NCBI GenBank assembly: GCA_050010515.1
Contig: JBEKKX010000026.1
Span: 1-33,630, forward strand
Direction of reading: 5' to 3'
Source of the DNA: Candidatus Bathyarchaeia archaeon
GTDB lineage: Archaea; Thermoproteota; Bathyarchaeia; Bathyarchaeales; Bathycorpusculaceae
Length of the DNA: 33,630 bases
The notes beneath the pieces were generated by a model. It made no database searches, was not told where the DNA came from, and was given only the letters and a program-made list of their open reading frames with translations. Shown here in pieces: positions 21,886-27,923 of the stretch; positions within the stretch are counted from its first letter, which is position 1, and each line of letters starts with the position of its first letter. A program made the translations under genes and the position numbers.

Positions 21886-24303
21886 ATGATAAACAAGTTG
21901 CCAATAGAAAAGCTCAGAAAAGAATGTGACTCTAATTTTATGCAATGCGAATCAACCAAGAATCTTGCTCCTTTAAGCGAAATTATAGGCCAAGAAAGAG
22001 CCGTTCGAGCGTTAAAATTTGGGCTCGGCATAAAAGACCACGGTTTCAACATGTATGTTGCAGGTTACCCTGGAACAGGCAGAAAAACCGCGGTTAAAAA
22101 CTTCGTAGAAGCGCAAGCTAAAGTTCAGCCAGTTCCACCTGACTGGTGTTATGTCAATAATTTTGCTAACCCATATGAGCCAAAAGCGATTCAGTTGCCA
22201 GCTGGAAAAGGAAAAGAATTCCGCGATGATATGAAAAATTTTATCGAAAATGTTGTGCGGAATTCGCTTCCTAAAACTTTTGAAAGTGAAGATTACGCTA
22301 CAAGAAGAGAAGCCACAATTCAAGGGTTAGAAAACCAAAGAAAACAGTTAATTGACGAATTAAACCAGAAGGCTCAGCGGGAAGGCTTTGTAATTCAAAG
22401 TACACCTATTGGCCTGCTACTTATTCCAGTGTTAGATGGCAAACCGCTTAGCGAAGAAGAAATGTTGGCGTTGCCTCAGAAGACGAAGGATAAGCTTCAG
22501 GAAAAAAGGGAAAAATTAGAAACAGAGTTCAGAAACACAATGAGGCAATTAATCGATATGGAAAGGAAAATACATGAAGCACTCACGAAGCTGAACAGGG
22601 AAGTGGCCCTTTATGCCATCGGTAACCAGATTGAAAGCCTCATGGAGAAGTACAAGGGCACACCAGAGGTCATAACCTACTTGAAAGAGGTAGAAAATGA
22701 TATTCTTGAAAACCTGCAACAGTTTGTGAAGAGAGGCGAAACCCAACAGCAACTTCCATTCCCAATGCCTTGGATGAAAGAGGACCTATACAAGAAATAT
22801 GAGGTAAATGTAGTTATTGATAACTCAGGTACTAAAGGTGCACCTGTAATCGTGGAAACCAACCCCACTTACCACAACCTCTTGGGCAGAACAGAAAAAG
22901 AAGCGCAGTTTGGCGTTTTAACCACTGACTTCTCTATGATTCGGGCAGGAGCCATACACAAAGCTAATGGTGGATACTTGATTATTCCAGTTGAAGAGCT
23001 GCTGAGAGACCCGTTCTCCTATGACGGTTTAAAACGAGATCTTAGAGACGGAAACATAGCTATAGAAGAACCTGAAGAGCGTTATGGCTATCTCAGTGTT
23101 AAAACACTTAAACCCCAGCCTATTCCTTTAACAGCCAAAGTAATCTTAATCGGTGACCCCAACATTTACCAATTATTATTCCAGTTGGACAATGATTTTA
23201 GAGAGCTTTTCAAGATTAAAGCCGAATTTGACAGTGTAATGGATAGAACTGACGATAAAGCAAGGCAGTATGCCGCTTTGATATGCACACTCTGTGAAAA
23301 AGAAAACCTCAAACACCTCGACGGCACAGGAGTAGCCAAAATAGTCGAATACAGTTCAAGGATTGCAGACGACCAATACAAGTTATCAACGCAATTCTCT
23401 CTTATTGCTGACATAATTCGCGAAGCAAACTATTATGCTTCACAAGAAAACGCCGAGTTCATAAACGGAAACCATGTCAAAAAAACTATAGAAGAAAAAG
23501 TTTACCGCTCAAAACTCATCCAAGAAAAAATTCAGGAAATGATAACTCGCGGGTTCTACTTAATAGACACCGTTGAAGAAAGGGTTGGGCAAGTAAATGG
23601 CTTATCCGTTATGGGACTAGGCGACTTTGCCTTCGGCACCCCCTCGCGGGTAACGGCAAGCATTGGCTTAGGCAGAGAAGGAGTAATCGACATTGAAAGA
23701 GAAGCTAAAATGGGCGGCCCCATACATACAAAAGGTGTCTTAATTCTCAGCGGCTACCTAAATGGCAAATACGCCAGGGACAAACTGTTGAGTCTTTCAG
23801 CAAGACTTGTTTTTGAGCAGAGTTATGGAGGGGTCGAAGGTGATAGCGCTTCAAGCACCGAATTATACTCGATTTTATCAGCGCTTTCTGGACTGCCGAT
23901 AAAGCAGAACATAGCAGTAACCGGTTCAGTTAACCAGAAAGGTGAAGTCCAAGCCATAGGCGGAGTAAACGAGAAAATCGAAGGCTTCTTTGAAGTCTGC
24001 AAACTTAAGGGTTTCACTGGACAACAAGGAGTGATGATACCGGAAAGCAACGTGCAAAACCTGATGCTTAAAGAAGAAGTTGTTGAAGCAGTGAAAGACG
24101 GCAAATTCAGCATCTACTCAGTCAAAACAATTGATGAAGGCATAGAGGTTCTTACTGGAGCAAAAGCTGGGCAAAGAAGTACGGATGGAACTTTCGAGGA
24201 AGGAACAGTGAATTACCTTGTAGACAAGCAACTTAAAGACATGGCTGATAAACTCAAGGAGTATCCACCTTTCCAAGTGCAAGAGAAAAAAGTTGAAAGT
24301 TAA
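21886..24303 (+). CDS. Lon-like protease, soluble LonC type (degenerate AAA module + Lon protease domain)
   Basis: IIGQERA, degenerate Walker A GYPGTGRKT, coiled-coil insert, HKANGGYL, GDSAS (Ser) and EKIEGFF (Lys) dyad; no TM segments. Confidence 0.9.
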   Translation: MINKLPIEKLRKECDSNFMQCESTKNLAPLSEIIGQERAVRALKFGLGIKDHGFNMYVAGYPGTGRKTAVKNFVEAQAKVQPVPPDWCYVNNFANPYEPKAIQLPAGKGKEFRDDMKNFIENVVRNSLPKTFESEDYATRREATIQGLENQRKQLIDELNQKAQREGFVIQSTPIGLLLIPVLDGKPLSEEEMLALPQKTKDKLQEKREKLETEFRNTMRQLIDMERKIHEALTKLNREVALYAIGNQIESLMEKYKGTPEVITYLKEVENDILENLQQFVKRGETQQQLPFPMPWMKEDLYKKYEVNVVIDNSGTKGAPVIVETNPTYHNLLGRTEKEAQFGVLTTDFSMIRAGAIHKANGGYLIIPVEELLRDPFSYDGLKRDLRDGNIAIEEPEERYGYLSVKTLKPQPIPLTAKVILIGDPNIYQLLFQLDNDFRELFKIKAEFDSVMDRTDDKARQYAALICTLCEKENLKHLDGTGVAKIVEYSSRIADDQYKLSTQFSLIADIIREANYYASQENAEFINGNHVKKTIEEKVYRSKLIQEKIQEMITRGFYLIDTVEERVGQVNGLSVMGLGDFAFGTPSRVTASIGLGREGVIDIEREAKMGGPIHTKGVLILSGYLNGKYARDKLLSLSARLVFEQSYGGVEGDSASSTELYSILSALSGLPIKQNIAVTGSVNQKGEVQAIGGVNEKIEGFFEVCKLKGFTGQQGVMIPESNVQNLMLKEEVVEAVKDGKFSIYSVKTIDEGIEVLTGAKAGQRSTDGTFEEGTVNYLVDKQLKDMADKLKEYPPFQVQEKKVES

Positions 24304-24536: not shown

Positions 24537-24761
24537 TTGGTAGCTTCAAAGCGCAAACATAAACGCAGTAACTCCATAATAACCATGCTTCTTCCAGCAA
24601 TGCTCTTCATATTCCTCATGGGATGGTGCATGTACTGCATCGGCAACCAAAAAAGACCAGATAAGATACAGCGTAAACCAATCAAAAAAGACAACGTGAG
24701 AGACAACGTAACCATTATGCCCATAATTTACGAAGAAACACAAGAAATAATAAATGAATAA
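24537..24761 (+). CDS. Small single-TM hypothetical protein
   Basis: Basic N-terminus, one hydrophobic helix, GGAGG upstream. Confidence 0.6.
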   Translation: MVASKRKHKRSNSIITMLLPAMLFIFLMGWCMYCIGNQKRPDKIQRKPIKKDNVRDNVTIMPIIYEETQEIINE

Positions 24762-24905
24762 CGCAAAAAGCAACCGCTTCTTTTAATCATTCGCAACTCT
24801 ACAATTTGTATTTTTTAGAAGCTCGCACGCTTGTTGTTGCAATTACACAATCACAATTCCATTTATACTGCGCAAAGACTTCTTAATTTGCGAGAAAATA
24901 GCCAT

Positions 24906-25036
24906 CCAAGAGGTACACCCATGCTTGGCGGGTCAGCTGTTAAACAAGGCGCGGGTTGCCGTACCCTGACAATTCAGGCCCTCTTTTTGATTCGCGTCTC
25001 GGGTTAACAAGGGCGATCCGCCAAGCCTACTTTTGG
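24906..25036 (+). ncRNA. Putative structured RNA (long rod hairpin), family unknown
   Basis: Nested helices 24906-15/25028-36, 24923-34/25015-26, 24938-43/25004-09, 24947-57/24989-99, 24965-69/24974-78, with about six G-U pairs on the + strand; T-tract at 25064-25068. Confidence 0.6.
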
Positions 25037-25136
25037 TTACTGCTTGCATGGAATCTAGCCGCCTTTTTGTATTAAATTTATTAAGGGATAGAGGCATTGC
25101 TATTTTTCGTGAGCCAAATTGAGCTATAAAGCAAAC

Positions 25137-25472
25137 ATGCATCCTACGGTTAGCAAAGCAGAAATTGAAGTATTCAAAGCCCTAAGCATGGCTGGGTTAA
25201 CCAGCGGCATGGTAACACAGAAAACAATTATTCTCAAATCAACCGTTCCTGACTTTTGCTGGATGAACAAGCGTAAAATCGTTTACTTAGATGGCACACC
25301 AGTACATTCTAGTGATAAACAGCAAGAGCACGATAACCAAATCGATGATCTTTTGAAAGCTCAAGGCTGGAATGTACTCAGAATTCCCTATCAACCGCCC
25401 TTAACAGAGAAAGGAATGCAAGAAATTGTGGCAACAATAAAGCGTTTCTTAAACGTGGATGAGGAAACATAG
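25137..25472 (+). CDS. Vsr/DUF559-like PD-(D/E)xK endonuclease
   Basis: S-x-AE helix, VPDF, V-x-LDG-x-x-x-H, D-x3-D-x2-L-x3-GW-x-VLR; alternative TTG start 25119. Confidence 0.8.
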   Translation: MHPTVSKAEIEVFKALSMAGLTSGMVTQKTIILKSTVPDFCWMNKRKIVYLDGTPVHSSDKQQEHDNQIDDLLKAQGWNVLRIPYQPPLTEKGMQEIVATIKRFLNVDEET

Positions 25473-25507
25473 GTTTCAAATAAATTGATTTACTTGACAT
25501 GAGCTTT

Positions 25508-25873
25508 TTAACATTCGTTTAACATTTTCTTGATTTGAGGTTTAATTCTTGGTAAGAGTGAAGTAGCGTTTTTCCATATGATTTCTGGGTCTCTGCTGAA
25601 ATACTCATGCGACAGAAAATGGCGTAAACTTGCAATATCCTCCCAAGGAATATAATATTGATAAAATTTTGATTTTATCTCTGGAATTTTTGATAAAACG
25701 TTCATGGCTTCGCCGATGTTGCGCAAGTTAGTATCAACCGCGTCTATAGTTTTTCGATCATGAATGAATTGATCAAGCGTCATTCCTTTTGTGTATTCTT
25801 CGATTATCTGGATGTGCAAAACGATTTCTTGGAGATAAAGCTTGTAATCTGATGGACCGCGTGCTTTCTTCAT
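25508..25873 (-). CDS. hepT: HepT-like (DUF86, HEPN) RNase toxin
   Basis: DAV...IGEA, IPW, R-x4-H-x-Y (RHFLSHEY), IIW. Confidence 0.9.
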   Translation of the reverse strand: MKKARGPSDYKLYLQEIVLHIQIIEEYTKGMTLDQFIHDRKTIDAVDTNLRNIGEAMNVLSKIPEIKSKFYQYYIPWEDIASLRHFLSHEYFSRDPEIIWKNATSLLPRIKPQIKKMLNEC

Positions 25874-26178
25874 ACTGGTATAGCTTCTTTTAGAACTCTG
25901 TCTTTTATGATTGGGTTTATGTATTTTTTTGAAACTAGGTCGACTTTTACGCCGAGTTTTCTTCTGAGAAATCTTTTGATGTTGTTGACGCCTACGATGT
26001 CAGGTGTTTCTGAGTATGTAACCAGAAGGTCAATGTCGCTTTGAAGTGTTTGCCCACATCTGGCGTATGAGCCAAAAATTTCTATTGTTTCCACTTTATA
26101 CTTTTCTTTGAGAACAGGTTTGAGTTCTTGCAGTTGCCGTTTTGTTTCCTCAAGCGTCATCAAAGCATTGTTCACCAC
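25870..26178 (-). CDS. mntA: MntA-like minimal nucleotidyltransferase antitoxin
   Basis: FGSYAR...SDID (GS-x10-DxD), KVDLV; ATGA overlap with hepT. Confidence 0.9.
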   Translation of the reverse strand: MVNNALMTLEETKRQLQELKPVLKEKYKVETIEIFGSYARCGQTLQSDIDLLVTYSETPDIVGVNNIKRFLRRKLGVKVDLVSKKYINPIIKDRVLKEAIPV

Positions 26179-26287: not shown

Positions 26288-26396
26288 GCTCCGGTAGTAT
26301 AGTCCGGTCAAACCTTACTAAGACTTCTTATTAAGGGACTAAGTATAGCGGCCTCTCGAGTCGCGGACCCGGGTCCAAATCCCGGCCGGAGCACCA
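26288..26396 (+). tRNA. tRNA-Glu(CTC) with a 31-nt intron at position 21/22 (26312-26342)
   Basis: Acceptor GCTCCGG/CCGGAGC, D stem GTAT/GTAT after splicing, anticodon arm GCGGC-CTCTCGA-GTCGC, T arm CCGGG-TCCAAAT-CCCGG, encoded ACCA; BHB-like GGTC-AAA / GACT-AAG. Confidence 0.93.
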
Positions 26397-26406
26397 TTTT
26401 ACTGTT

Positions 26407-26505
26407 TCAGCGTGAAGTTTTTTTTACTGAATCTATTGCTATAAACAAGCTTGGTCTTTTTAGAAAATCTGTCAGTTCGTTTGTGTGGTAGACAGCCTCT
26501 TCTAT
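26407..26505 (-). pseudogene. Remnant of a PIN-domain (VapC) toxin gene
   Basis: ATA GAA GAG GCT GTC TAC CAC ACA AAC GAA CTG ACA GAT TTT CTA reads (M>I)EEAVY(D>H)TNELTDFL, a PIN-type start overlapping the antitoxin end; ends after 32 codons. Confidence 0.65.
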
Positions 26506-26750
26506 TCCAGCTTCCTGCCTTCTTCGCAATATTTGATAGCTTTTTCCAAGTCAATACTTGAGGTGTCAACGCCAGAATCTTTCAGCTTCTTGGCCAGTTT
26601 TTTCATTGGAACTGCTCCACCTTCAACTATTTCTAATCGGTAGACATAGCTTGCTATTGCTTTGCGGACGACTTCGCTCCACTTGACTTCCGAATGCCGC
26701 TTCATCTTATCGTATAATTCTTGAGGAATTGATATTGTTATGTCTACCAT
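26502..26750 (-). CDS. Ribbon-helix-helix (VapB/CopG-like) antitoxin, probably shortened by a TGG>TAG change
   Basis: ITISIPQELYDKMKRHSEVKWSEVVRKAI RHH pattern; frame continues KRLSTTQTN* past the TAG. Confidence 0.8.
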   Translation of the reverse strand: MVDITISIPQELYDKMKRHSEVKWSEVVRKAIASYVYRLEIVEGGAVPMKKLAKKLKDSGVDTSSIDLEKAIKYCEEGRKLE

Positions 26751-26810
26751 GTGCATAATTATTTGATTGCTCCATAATTAAATTATCCGATGGCTTTTCG
26801 AAAAAGAAAA

Positions 26811-27923
26811 TTATTTGTATGCGAGTGTTGAACACAATTCTTCTACTGTGCGGTTTAGCGTTAGTTCTGCCATGTTTTTGCTGTAGTCCATTATGCGTCT
26901 TGAACTGTCAAAAATTAAGCGCAACACTGAAGCCATGTTTGGGTCTAGCTTTTTGCTTGACATTAACATGATTAGCTCATTCTCGAGCGGAGTTAGGGAT
27001 TCGCGTTTTGAAATTAGTTTCTCTGCATCTTTGTATTCTCTTTTGAACAATGCTTTTATGGCGTCTTCGTATAGCTGGTGTGCTTGCGAGCTGAAATTGA
27101 CCAGTTGGTTGTATATTTCTTCGTCTATAGGGTCTTTTATGAAAAGTGTTTCATCATCGATTAATTTTTGCAGTGAACCCAAATTGTTTATGATATTCAT
27201 GGCATTTTCGCCAATGTTTTCAATGTCGTTTGCTGCTATGCGGTATAAGAGAAACTCTTTGGGTGTTCTAAAGCCGAGTTCTCGGTATAGGTTTCGTTCT
27301 ATGCCGTATTTTAGTTGGCGAACGATGTATAGTCCCAAGCGGTTTACGTCATTGTGAGAGTTGATTACGTTGTCAAATAAAGTGGTGCTTCTGTCTTTTA
27401 GGGTCGAGATGGCGTCTCTGTTTGCGGAGAGTGCTACGATAGCCATTCTTCTAACAGCTTTTTCAATGGGGAATTCTGACTGTTTTATTAGGATTTGCAG
27501 GGTAATTTCGTCTGATGTTTCATCGATTATTTCTGAACCAAGAAAGTTGTCTCTAGCCAGATTTTTTATTTCATTTTTGTATTTTACTGCGTCTTGAGTG
27601 TTTTTGAAGTGGACTCTTATTATGTCAGCGCCTATGGCATATAACGCGCGGATCATGCGCAGCGTGGATTGTGTAGGCTCTTTCGGGTCAACGTTAATGA
27701 AGTATTCTTTGAGTTTGGATGCGTTGTCTCTGCCTTCTTTTTCTTTGATTTTTCTTGGAACAAGCGTTAGTGTGGAGTCTGGTTGGATGTTGAATGCTAT
27801 TTCGCTGCCTCGTTTTAACTCTAGGTCTTGGACCCATGCTTTCGGTAGGGATATTATGTATGATCCTCTTCCTGTGCATTGGACTTTTCTATAGCCTAGG
27901 TCTTTTTCTGCCAAAAAGCTCAC
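26811..27923 (-). CDS. AbrB/MazE-domain + PhoU-domain regulator (archaeal phosphate-uptake-regulator family)
   Basis: RKVQ-x-TG-x-GSYIISLPK-x-W N-terminal AbrB fold; PhoU-like repeats (DIENIGENA, RRIMDYS-x-N-x-AE). Confidence 0.88.
   Translation of the reverse strand: MSFLAEKDLGYRKVQCTGRGSYIISLPKAWVQDLELKRGSEIAFNIQPDSTLTLVPRKIKEKEGRDNASKLKEYFINVDPKEPTQSTLRMIRALYAIGADIIRVHFKNTQDAVKYKNEIKNLARDNFLGSEIIDETSDEITLQILIKQSEFPIEKAVRRMAIVALSANRDAISTLKDRSTTLFDNVINSHNDVNRLGLYIVRQLKYGIERNLYRELGFRTPKEFLLYRIAANDIENIGENAMNIINNLGSLQKLIDDETLFIKDPIDEEIYNQLVNFSSQAHQLYEDAIKALFKREYKDAEKLISKRESLTPLENELIMLMSSKKLDPNMASVLRLIFDSSRRIMDYSKNMAELTLNRTVEELCSTLAYK

Follow-up and report, generated by a model that had tools for sequence, protein, structure and literature searches.

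A stretch of 33,630 nucleotides (nt) from a Candidatus Bathyarchaeia archaeon of the Bathycorpusculaceae (contig JBEKKX010000026.1 of assembly GCA_050010515.1; the whole stretch is hereafter called the window) carries a stand-alone structured non-coding RNA (ncRNA) gene of about 150 nt, which lies on the + strand and has an archaeal TATA promoter of its own. An earlier note, made from the letters of this stretch, had described a rod-shaped hairpin directly upstream of a gene for a small Vsr-like nuclease, and had proposed either a novel ncRNA, possibly a partner of that nuclease, or a single-stranded DNA (ssDNA) hairpin that the nuclease processes. The proposal of a novel ncRNA on the + strand is borne out by a conserved TATA box, by covariation with many G-U pairs, and by the finding of neither an Rfam family nor a conserved open reading frame (ORF). 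By comparison with its relatives, the RNA is the best-conserved member of a small paralogous family in three related Bathyarchaeia genera, and its adjacency to the nuclease gene (DUF559) is best read, from the gene arrangements in these genomes, as inherited gene order and not as functional pairing. We lean toward the view that the gene is independent and that its product is a closed rod with a handle, putatively acting in trans as a protein-bound RNA. Bathyarchaeia are abundant and uncultured, and next to nothing is known of their RNA biology; a new RNA family offers a point of entry to post-transcriptional or ribonucleoprotein (RNP)-based regulation in these organisms, and its covariance model can annotate more than 100 genomes.

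Gene and promoter

The element occupies a GC-rich stretch between the gene of a LonB-type protease (21886–24303), which is followed by a small ORF (24537–24761), and an ORF of 111–117 amino acids (aa; 25119/25137–25472), and the order Lon, element, small ORF is maintained in relatives. As the earlier note had remarked, it stands out from AT-rich surroundings, with a GC fraction of 0.54–0.55 at 24900–25049 as compared to 0.33–0.34 upstream and 0.38–0.41 downstream. In an alignment of 29 genomes, the near-invariant CACAATTCCATTTATAC, which contains TTTATA, is followed by about 20 variable bases and then by conservation that sets in sharply at TTGCGAG, beginning between 24888 and 24890, and fades past GGTTAC at 25044. 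A distance of 25 nt from the TATA center to the start is the usual archaeal promoter spacing, and because conservation begins sharply at TTGCGAG, 25 nt from the TATA center, we place the RNA start at G24890 (Table 1). Covariance models agree with these limits: the match spans 24887–25042, with 169.6 bits for model R1, which combines 29 sequences with the 36 pairs of the core hairpin as folded in the window; R2, in which sequences of the sister genus g26 were added to R1, gives 163.8 bits. The T-tract that had been noted at 25064 is present, and because it directly abuts the TATA region of the nuclease gene, it may not be the terminator of the RNA. We found no conserved ORF within the RNA, whose lengths (152–165 nt) show no 3-nt periodicity and which has stops in every frame; a small-ORF reading was rejected, as no frame is kept among the homologs.

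Table 1. Window coordinates of the ncRNA gene, its parts, and the adjoining nuclease gene.
Feature	Position	Strand	Remarks
Promoter-upstream element, TTGTTGTTG-N10-CAATCACA	24831–24856	+	Adjoins the TATA box on its 5' side; conserved among the 29 aligned genomes
TATA box of the RNA gene, CATTTATACT (TTTATA at 24862–24867)	24860–24869	+	Near-invariant in 29 genomes; about 25 nt 5' of the first conserved RNA base
ncRNA	24890–25045	+	Probable start G24890; 3' end at about 25034–25045, possibly 25068
5' segment, AAUAGCCAUCCAAGAGGUACACCCA, 24 nt	24898–24922	+	Identity of ≥97% in almost all columns (75 distinct sequences of the genus)
P1, 5' strand, GCUUGGCGGGUC	24923–24934	+	Pairs with 25015–25026
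P2 (GCUGUUA...) and P3 (AGGCGCGGGUU), 5' strands	24936–24957	+	Pair with 24989–25014
Asymmetric internal loop around apical hairpin P4	24958–24988	+	Loop sides 24958–24964 and 24979–24988, P4 24965–24978; from folds
Conserved U-tract, UUUUUGAU	24984–24991	+	UU.UG.U at least 97% conserved
P1, 3' strand, GAUCCGCCAAGC	25015–25026	+	Covariation and paralog alignment
Conserved 3' segment, CCUACUUUUGGUUAC	25027–25045	+	Predicted to pair with the 5' segment, closing the rod
T5 run	25064–25068	+	Conserved along with the adjoining TATA region of the nuclease gene
TATA box of the DUF559 gene, AATTTATTAAG	25073–25083	+	Kept in most of 27 aligned DUF559 loci
DUF559/Vsr-fold gene	25119–25472	+	117 aa from TTG 25119, 111 aa from ATG 25137

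Fold and covariation

Taken singly, the sequence folds only modestly better than its shuffles: the RNA fold of the + strand has a z score of −2.67, with 1 of 200 shuffles equally good (−2.18 for 24890–25045), the RNA fold of the − strand has −1.10, and the DNA fold of the + strand has −1.58. The hairpin that had been read from the letters is nonetheless real, and minimum-free-energy folds contain both its apical stem (CCTGA-CAAT-TCAGG) and its asymmetric bubble, GCCGTAC / CCCTCTTTTT (as RNA, GCCGUAC / CCCUCUUUUU), with three further helices below the bubble and two outer helices that join the 5' and 3' flanks. Where about 43 base pairs (bp) over 131 nt had been claimed, we counted a core of 36 bp at 24923–25026 and about 48 bp over 24899–25039 with the two outer helices included; the estimate of about six G-U pairs agrees with the six counted in the core by reading the fold.

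The decisive evidence for the structure is comparative and consists of compensatory changes. A search with R1 of 100 of 109 loci (omitting L030, a weak match of another family, and L102–L110) gave 93 matches, made up of 29/29 loci of the genus and 64 of 71 further DUF559 loci gathered via the neighboring protein, with each match lying just upstream of the nuclease gene. Collapsing identical rows left 75 distinct sequences, in which 91.9% of the cells of the 36 pairs are standard pairs and 26 of the 36 pairs have changed on both sides. Not one of 500 column shuffles attained the observed value of any of five measures, and in slid controls, with the partner shifted by 1–3 columns, pairing fell to 16–49% (maximum 48.6%). 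These counts come from an alignment fitted to the model, which favors structure; an independent MAFFT and RNAalifold alignment has double changes in 11 of 25 pairs. One pair of the rod is G-U in 65 of the 75 sequences and many pairs are G-U in most of them, and R2 scores 163.8 bits on the + strand vs. 17.7 bits on the − strand, which together indicate that the element works as RNA transcribed from the + strand.

The 5' segment is invariant over the 75 distinct orthologs whereas the helices drift; sister genera retain part of it (AGCCAUC...), and the paralogs have another sequence in its place. Helix P1 is 96.2% paired, with double changes in 9 of 15 pairs, and its core, UUGGCGGRUC / GAYCCGCCAA, is retained even in paralogs. 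P3 is 95.3% paired with double changes in 7 of 8 pairs, and in P2 a whole helix has been swapped, from GUUAA/UUAAC to GGUGGUC/GGCCAUC, at one locus (L020). The apical hairpin occurs in two forms within the genus, and one closing pair is C-G in 32, U-A in 32, and U-G in 9 of the 75 sequences. At the other end of the rod, 12 terminal pairs are predicted (24899–24904 with 25034–25039 and 24910–24915 with 25028–25033), all standard in 65–75 of the 75 sequences except for one pair (34 of 75). Double changes are lacking in these terminal helices because the 5' and 3' segments hardly vary, and other registers fold almost equally well; it is likely, as far as the predicted folds go, that the rod is closed by pairing of its 5' and 3' ends, in one of several possible registers. 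Inspection by eye gave no support to a pseudoknot of the 5' segment with the U-rich loop, as the loop varies and the 5' segment is always the same.

Comparison with known RNA families

The impression that the element lacks the hallmarks of tRNA, 5S, SRP, RNase P, and H/ACA RNAs held up. The whole window has no match at gathering scores to any Rfam 15 family, among which are also 6S, Y, and C/D RNAs, ribozymes, and HEARO, a permissive Rfam scan of 24700–25250 gave three chance-level matches (E 0.72–9.5), all of them outside the rod, and ARAGORN found no tRNA. The genome has its signal recognition particle RNA and its RNase P RNA elsewhere (C56:7660–7974, 153.6 bits, and C32:24001–24302, 177 bits, respectively), which speaks against either identity. 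An archaeal H/ACA guide should have an ANA (ACA) box immediately after its hairpin and, higher up the stem, a K-turn or K-loop; here, CCUACUUUU follows P1 and no ANA stands where it would be expected, a tandem G-A motif is lacking from the upper stem, and inspection by eye found no hallmarks of K-turns, H/ACA, or C/D RNAs. A Y RNA was rejected because PF05731 (TROVE/Ro) has no match in the 98.5% complete genome of the window, with Deinococcus and Bacteroides controls positive, and a type III antitoxin RNA because Tandem Repeats Finder returned no rows for 24700–25500. No paper dealing with non-coding or structured RNAs in Bathyarchaeota/Bathyarchaeia came up in a full-text literature search. 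The RNA family is new, its general kind, the small structured archaeal RNAs, is known, and the architecture of its paralogs is unusual.

Distribution and paralogs

By BLASTN the element is single-copy in its own genome and has a match at E ≤1 in 32 of 36 genomes of the same genus, the best 28 of these 32 being 72–95% identical. Among 151 genomes of the order, R1 matched 9 of 12 in the window's genus (g1) and 3 of 6 in its sister genus g26, and none of 115 genomes in 11 other families. Among 151 genomes of the family, R2 matched 3 of 5 in g1, 2 of 4 in g26, and 3 of 4 in a third genus, g82; matches elsewhere had E >0.01 only. Within the window's own genus, 100 of 120 genomes, including 65 of 73 high-quality ones, have an R2 match at E ≤1e-5, usually a single one above 100 bits, and the matches listed include 17 extra, weaker ones of 38–51 bits. 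Searches over more than 40 genomes used stricter filters, with which weak copies may be missed.

The weaker matches (24–51 bits) are paralogs that have a handle in common, consisting of P1, the GUUAAC helix, a U5 tract just before the P3 3' strand, and a 3' CUACUUUU, and their 5' segments differ from one another (the family alignment shows 22 of 31 matches, the remainder being reverse-strand echoes). The paralogs, and the g26 and g82 orthologs as well, carry a long CU-rich loop as their apical part. The window's own genome has one paralog at C9:7916–8028 on the − strand (24.2 bits) and a second, more divergent one at about C12:50386–50620 on the + strand, which by eye lies behind the shared promoter element described below; both have the basal helix, the GUUAAC helix, CCUGAA with a U-run, a 3' CUUUU, and a long apical loop rich in C and U, and both differ in the 5' segment. 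Further paralogs occur in three other genomes (G013, G017, and G003), and g26 has tandem or nearby copies. At one sister-genus locus (L124:2–535, − strand), an ORF of 178 aa adjoins RNA copies; by eye its C-terminus resembles the RNA polymerase subunit Rpo5/H and it has an extra N-terminal part, and a THEP1-like NTPase ORF and a Trm1-like ORF are close by.

Most family members in the three genera are preceded by a shared composite of TTGT...CA(G/A)TCACA and a TATA-like box, the shared element having the form TTGTTG-N-CA(G/A)TCACA just 5' of the TATA box. A looser form of the composite has 18 sites in the window's own genome, mostly ahead of ORFs of 45–130 aa or of no ORF, and may be the binding site of one regulator. 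At least two of the small ORFs behind the 17 sites other than 24831–24856 look, by eye, like Cys/His zinc-finger proteins.

Putative role of the RNA

The constant handle, the 5' segment that is invariant among orthologs and specific to each paralog, and the Sm-like U-tracts together favor a trans-acting, protein-bound RNA. The handle and the U-tracts would bind a protein, for which an Sm-like archaeal protein (SmAP) is the obvious candidate, and the member-specific 5' segment would give each RNA its specificity, so that the RNA may act in trans as a regulatory or RNP RNA. Paralogous trans-acting small RNAs (sRNAs) that join a shared protein-binding module to a distinct seed are known in the Hfq-dependent Qrr1-5 and OmrA/B and in archaeal Lsm/SmAP-associated sRNAs. 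As in those families, the members considered here are small, have their own promoter with a shared upstream element, occur as several paralogs, some in tandem, and combine a constant structured U-rich module with a member-specific, ortholog-invariant segment and a U-run near the 3' end. Unlike them, they show no sequence or Rfam relationship, their host is an uncultured archaeon, and the specific segment lies at the 5' end, where it is predicted to be partly paired with the 3' end. The internal loop has a conserved U-tract, CUAUUUUUGAU, and the 3' end has another, CUACUUUUGG; both agree only in part with the Sm-site consensus AAUUUUUGG given in PMC5587771, in which archaeal SmAPs are also stated to bind poly(U).

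Several observations count against a trans-acting, protein-bound RNA. The likeness of the U-tracts to an Sm site is partial, and we identified no protein partner. When the 5' segment was compared with its own genome by a G-U-aware seed scan and duplex energies, the best non-self antisense duplex had −38.1 kcal/mol; six shuffled 5' segments gave best duplexes of −32.1 to −37.5 kcal/mol, that is, there is no target signal, and BLAST for antisense targets returned only chance-level matches of 11–12 nt. The predicted pairing of the 5' segment with the 3' segment would make it less available as a seed. The RNA data consist of two low-depth contigs from relatives in one wetland metatranscriptome (contigs only), one of 151 nt spanning about 24885–25036 and one of 262 nt; because the latter includes promoter letters, DNA carry-over or read-through is possible. 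Finally, the adjacency to DUF559 is kept in two genera, so some local link is possible. The 5' segment was also matched against the CU-rich loops in six paralogs, and this pairing was rejected, as 110–182 of 200 shuffles were equal or better.

The main alternative, which we consider rather unlikely, is a rod that sequesters an abundant protein (RNA polymerase or an RNA-binding protein), as bacterial 6S and Y RNAs do; in that case the invariant 5' segment would serve as a protein contact and not as a base-pairing seed, a reading to which we assign the same low likelihood. The predicted closure of the rod by its ends would suit such a function, as would the lack of an outstanding antisense target, and the conservation across paralogs of the P1 sequence, not of its pairing alone, suggests a sequence-specific protein contact. 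The paralogs and the sister-genus orthologs, moreover, have long pyrimidine-rich loops and a 3' U run, features that recall Y RNA architecture. However, the Rfam models of 6S and Y RNA have no match in the window, the nearly complete genome has no TROVE/Ro gene, and 5' segments that are specific to each paralog suit a role in specificity better than a shared decoy. Bacterial 6S RNA is a rod with a closing stem, a large central bubble, and a terminal stem. The RNA resembles it in the length of the rod, the predicted pairing of the ends, an internal bubble, an apical stem, and a middle part conserved more in structure than in sequence, but it has no covariance-model match, its bubble is much smaller (7 and 10 nt), its 5' segment and P1 are invariant in sequence, and the archaeal transcription machinery differs; we know of no 6S RNA in archaea, and a literature search on the subject listed a review of bacterial gene regulation. 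The 6S-like rod suggested in the earlier note is conceivable but gained no support from the results. With Y and Y-like RNAs (Ro/Rsr) it shares a closed basal stem of conserved sequence, along with the loops and U run just mentioned, but it has neither an Rfam match nor a tRNA-like domain.

A bolder variant of the trans-acting RNA, which we regard as a long shot, is that the 5' segment and handle form programmable, guide-like RNAs for a protein effector, co-regulated with very small protein genes via TTGTTG...CAGTCACA. If true, the set would amount to a new regulatory system of archaea, RNA-guided or RNP-based, and not to ordinary antisense sRNAs.

Relationship to the DUF559 gene

The RNA stands directly upstream of DUF559 not only at the 93 loci that R1 matched but also in 2/2 g82 genomes, and all three RNA-bearing genera have a DUF559 gene. 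This is what a functional partner of the nuclease would show, be it a guide, an antitoxin, or a processed substrate, and be it RNA or an ssDNA hairpin with G:T pairs. The wider distribution of the two genes nevertheless makes such a partnership very improbable. In g26, RNA and DUF559 are on different contigs in 3/3 genomes, with no model matches near DUF559, so the linkage expected of partners is kept in g1 and g82 and broken in g26. DUF559 orthologs (E ~1e-53) occur in 34 of the 151 genomes and 11 of the 70 genera of the family. At 22 further DUF559 loci (omitting four g1 loci known to carry the RNA and five loci tested before), a search with filters off found the RNA at none, the sole match having 11.2 bits and E 0.5; in five genomes, from five other DUF559-bearing genera, no family member was found, the sole match being of 30 nt and E 0.76. 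The two genes have separate conserved promoters, and DUF559 has retained a TATA box and leader of its own in all genera examined, whether or not the RNA is present. Paralogs of the RNA lie elsewhere in the genome and do not adjoin nucleases, the tandem repeats typical of type III antitoxins are lacking, and the DNA fold is weak. Co-occurrence in a single clade is expected from shared ancestry alone. The separate promoter, the wider spread, and the unlinking in g26 indicate that the nuclease is an independent and more widespread unit, and neither the RNA partner nor the processed ssDNA hairpin of the earlier note could be upheld; the tempting link between the hairpin and the neighboring Vsr-like nuclease is thereby removed.

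We hold it to be just as improbable that the rod is a cis-acting leader or attenuator, in which transcription would run through it into DUF559 with the rod and the U-tracts controlling read-through. The two are on the same strand, some 75–90 nt apart, in an order kept in two genera, and, as oligo-T terminates archaeal transcription, the U-tracts at 24984–24988, 25031–25034, and 25064–25068 could be termination signals. A leader of this kind is, however, at odds with the TATA box and leader that DUF559 retains in genera without the RNA and with the g26 orthologs and the paralogs, which precede no such gene; that the 151-nt contig covers only about 24885–25036 is weak evidence in the same direction.

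A DNA-level element, be it a cruciform, a site of replication or recombination, or what is left of a small mobile inverted repeat, is hardly credible: the long imperfect inverted repeat and its few related copies in each genome might point to a repeat family, but pairing is preserved via G-U intermediates on one strand only, the model scores are strongly strand-asymmetric, the DNA fold is weak, a conserved TATA box lies at the right distance, and, in 100 of 120 genomes, the element is not scattered but syntenic and single-copy.

The DUF559 gene itself encodes what had been taken for a Vsr-like nuclease of 111 aa. The family and the predicted fold agree with this, as Pfam PF04480 (DUF559) matches at E 6.9e-8 (32.8 bits vs. 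a cut-off of 20.6) and an AlphaFold model (pLDDT 79.8) has as its best Foldseek matches 1cw0_A (E. coli Vsr; probability 1.00, TMq 0.71), 3r3p (the catalytic domain of I-Bth0305I), and 3hrl (NGO0050, a Neisseria DUF559 protein), with E 0.005–0.05, probability 0.97–1.00, and TMq 0.58–0.71 for the three. A DUF559 profile run against the sequences of solved structures gave nothing with E <0.5, and NCBIfam has no family for the protein. The length is a different matter. Different genera keep TTG-AGC-TAY-AAR (25119–25139 in the window, 5' of the ATG), with changes that look synonymous, and TTG 25119 is therefore the probable start of the ORF, giving 117 aa and a very short or absent leader. The protein is 62–100% identical across 29 genomes of the genus. 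Most of 27 aligned DUF559 loci, including loci of genera without the RNA, have a box A(A/G)TTATTAAGG about 60 nt 5' of the ATG, and most have a TTGAGCTACAAA stretch that varies synonymously. The Pfam match and the predicted fold are thus what the window's protein has in common with Vsr/DUF559 proteins; it differs from Vsr in having only 111–117 aa and in being a single-gene unit with its own promoter, present in 11 of 70 genera. Classical vsr-dcm has an adjacent C5-cytosine methyltransferase; as had been observed, the gene here has none nearby, there being no DNA methyltransferase among the 30 ORFs of at least 90 aa in the window.

Other features of the window and genome

In the window's own genome, a motif search (GGATCACCTCCT) found only the 3' end of the 16S rRNA gene (the last ~380 nt, on C19), and the one 23S motif tried was not found in the assembly. 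Within the window, an ORF of 84 aa (26505–26756, − strand) matches a VapB antitoxin weakly, with 25.2 bits where the cut-off is 60, and beside it is the gene of a 370-aa protein (26814–27923, − strand) in which an AbrB/MazE-type domain is joined to PhoU domains. A HepT-like/nucleotidyltransferase (MNT) toxin-antitoxin pair lies at 25508–26178 on the − strand. The pair is missing in several relatives (e.g., L003, L004, and L012), where the end of the DUF559 gene runs almost straight into the block of a tRNA-Glu gene, which makes the pair an insertion or deletion difference within the genus. This tRNA-Glu(CUC) gene (26288–26396, + strand) has an intron of about 30–35 nt in the D-arm region and an encoded CCA; it was missed by ARAGORN and Rfam, of 450 trial excisions 202 yield tRNA-Glu(ctc) in ARAGORN, and the block is 93–97% identical in relatives.

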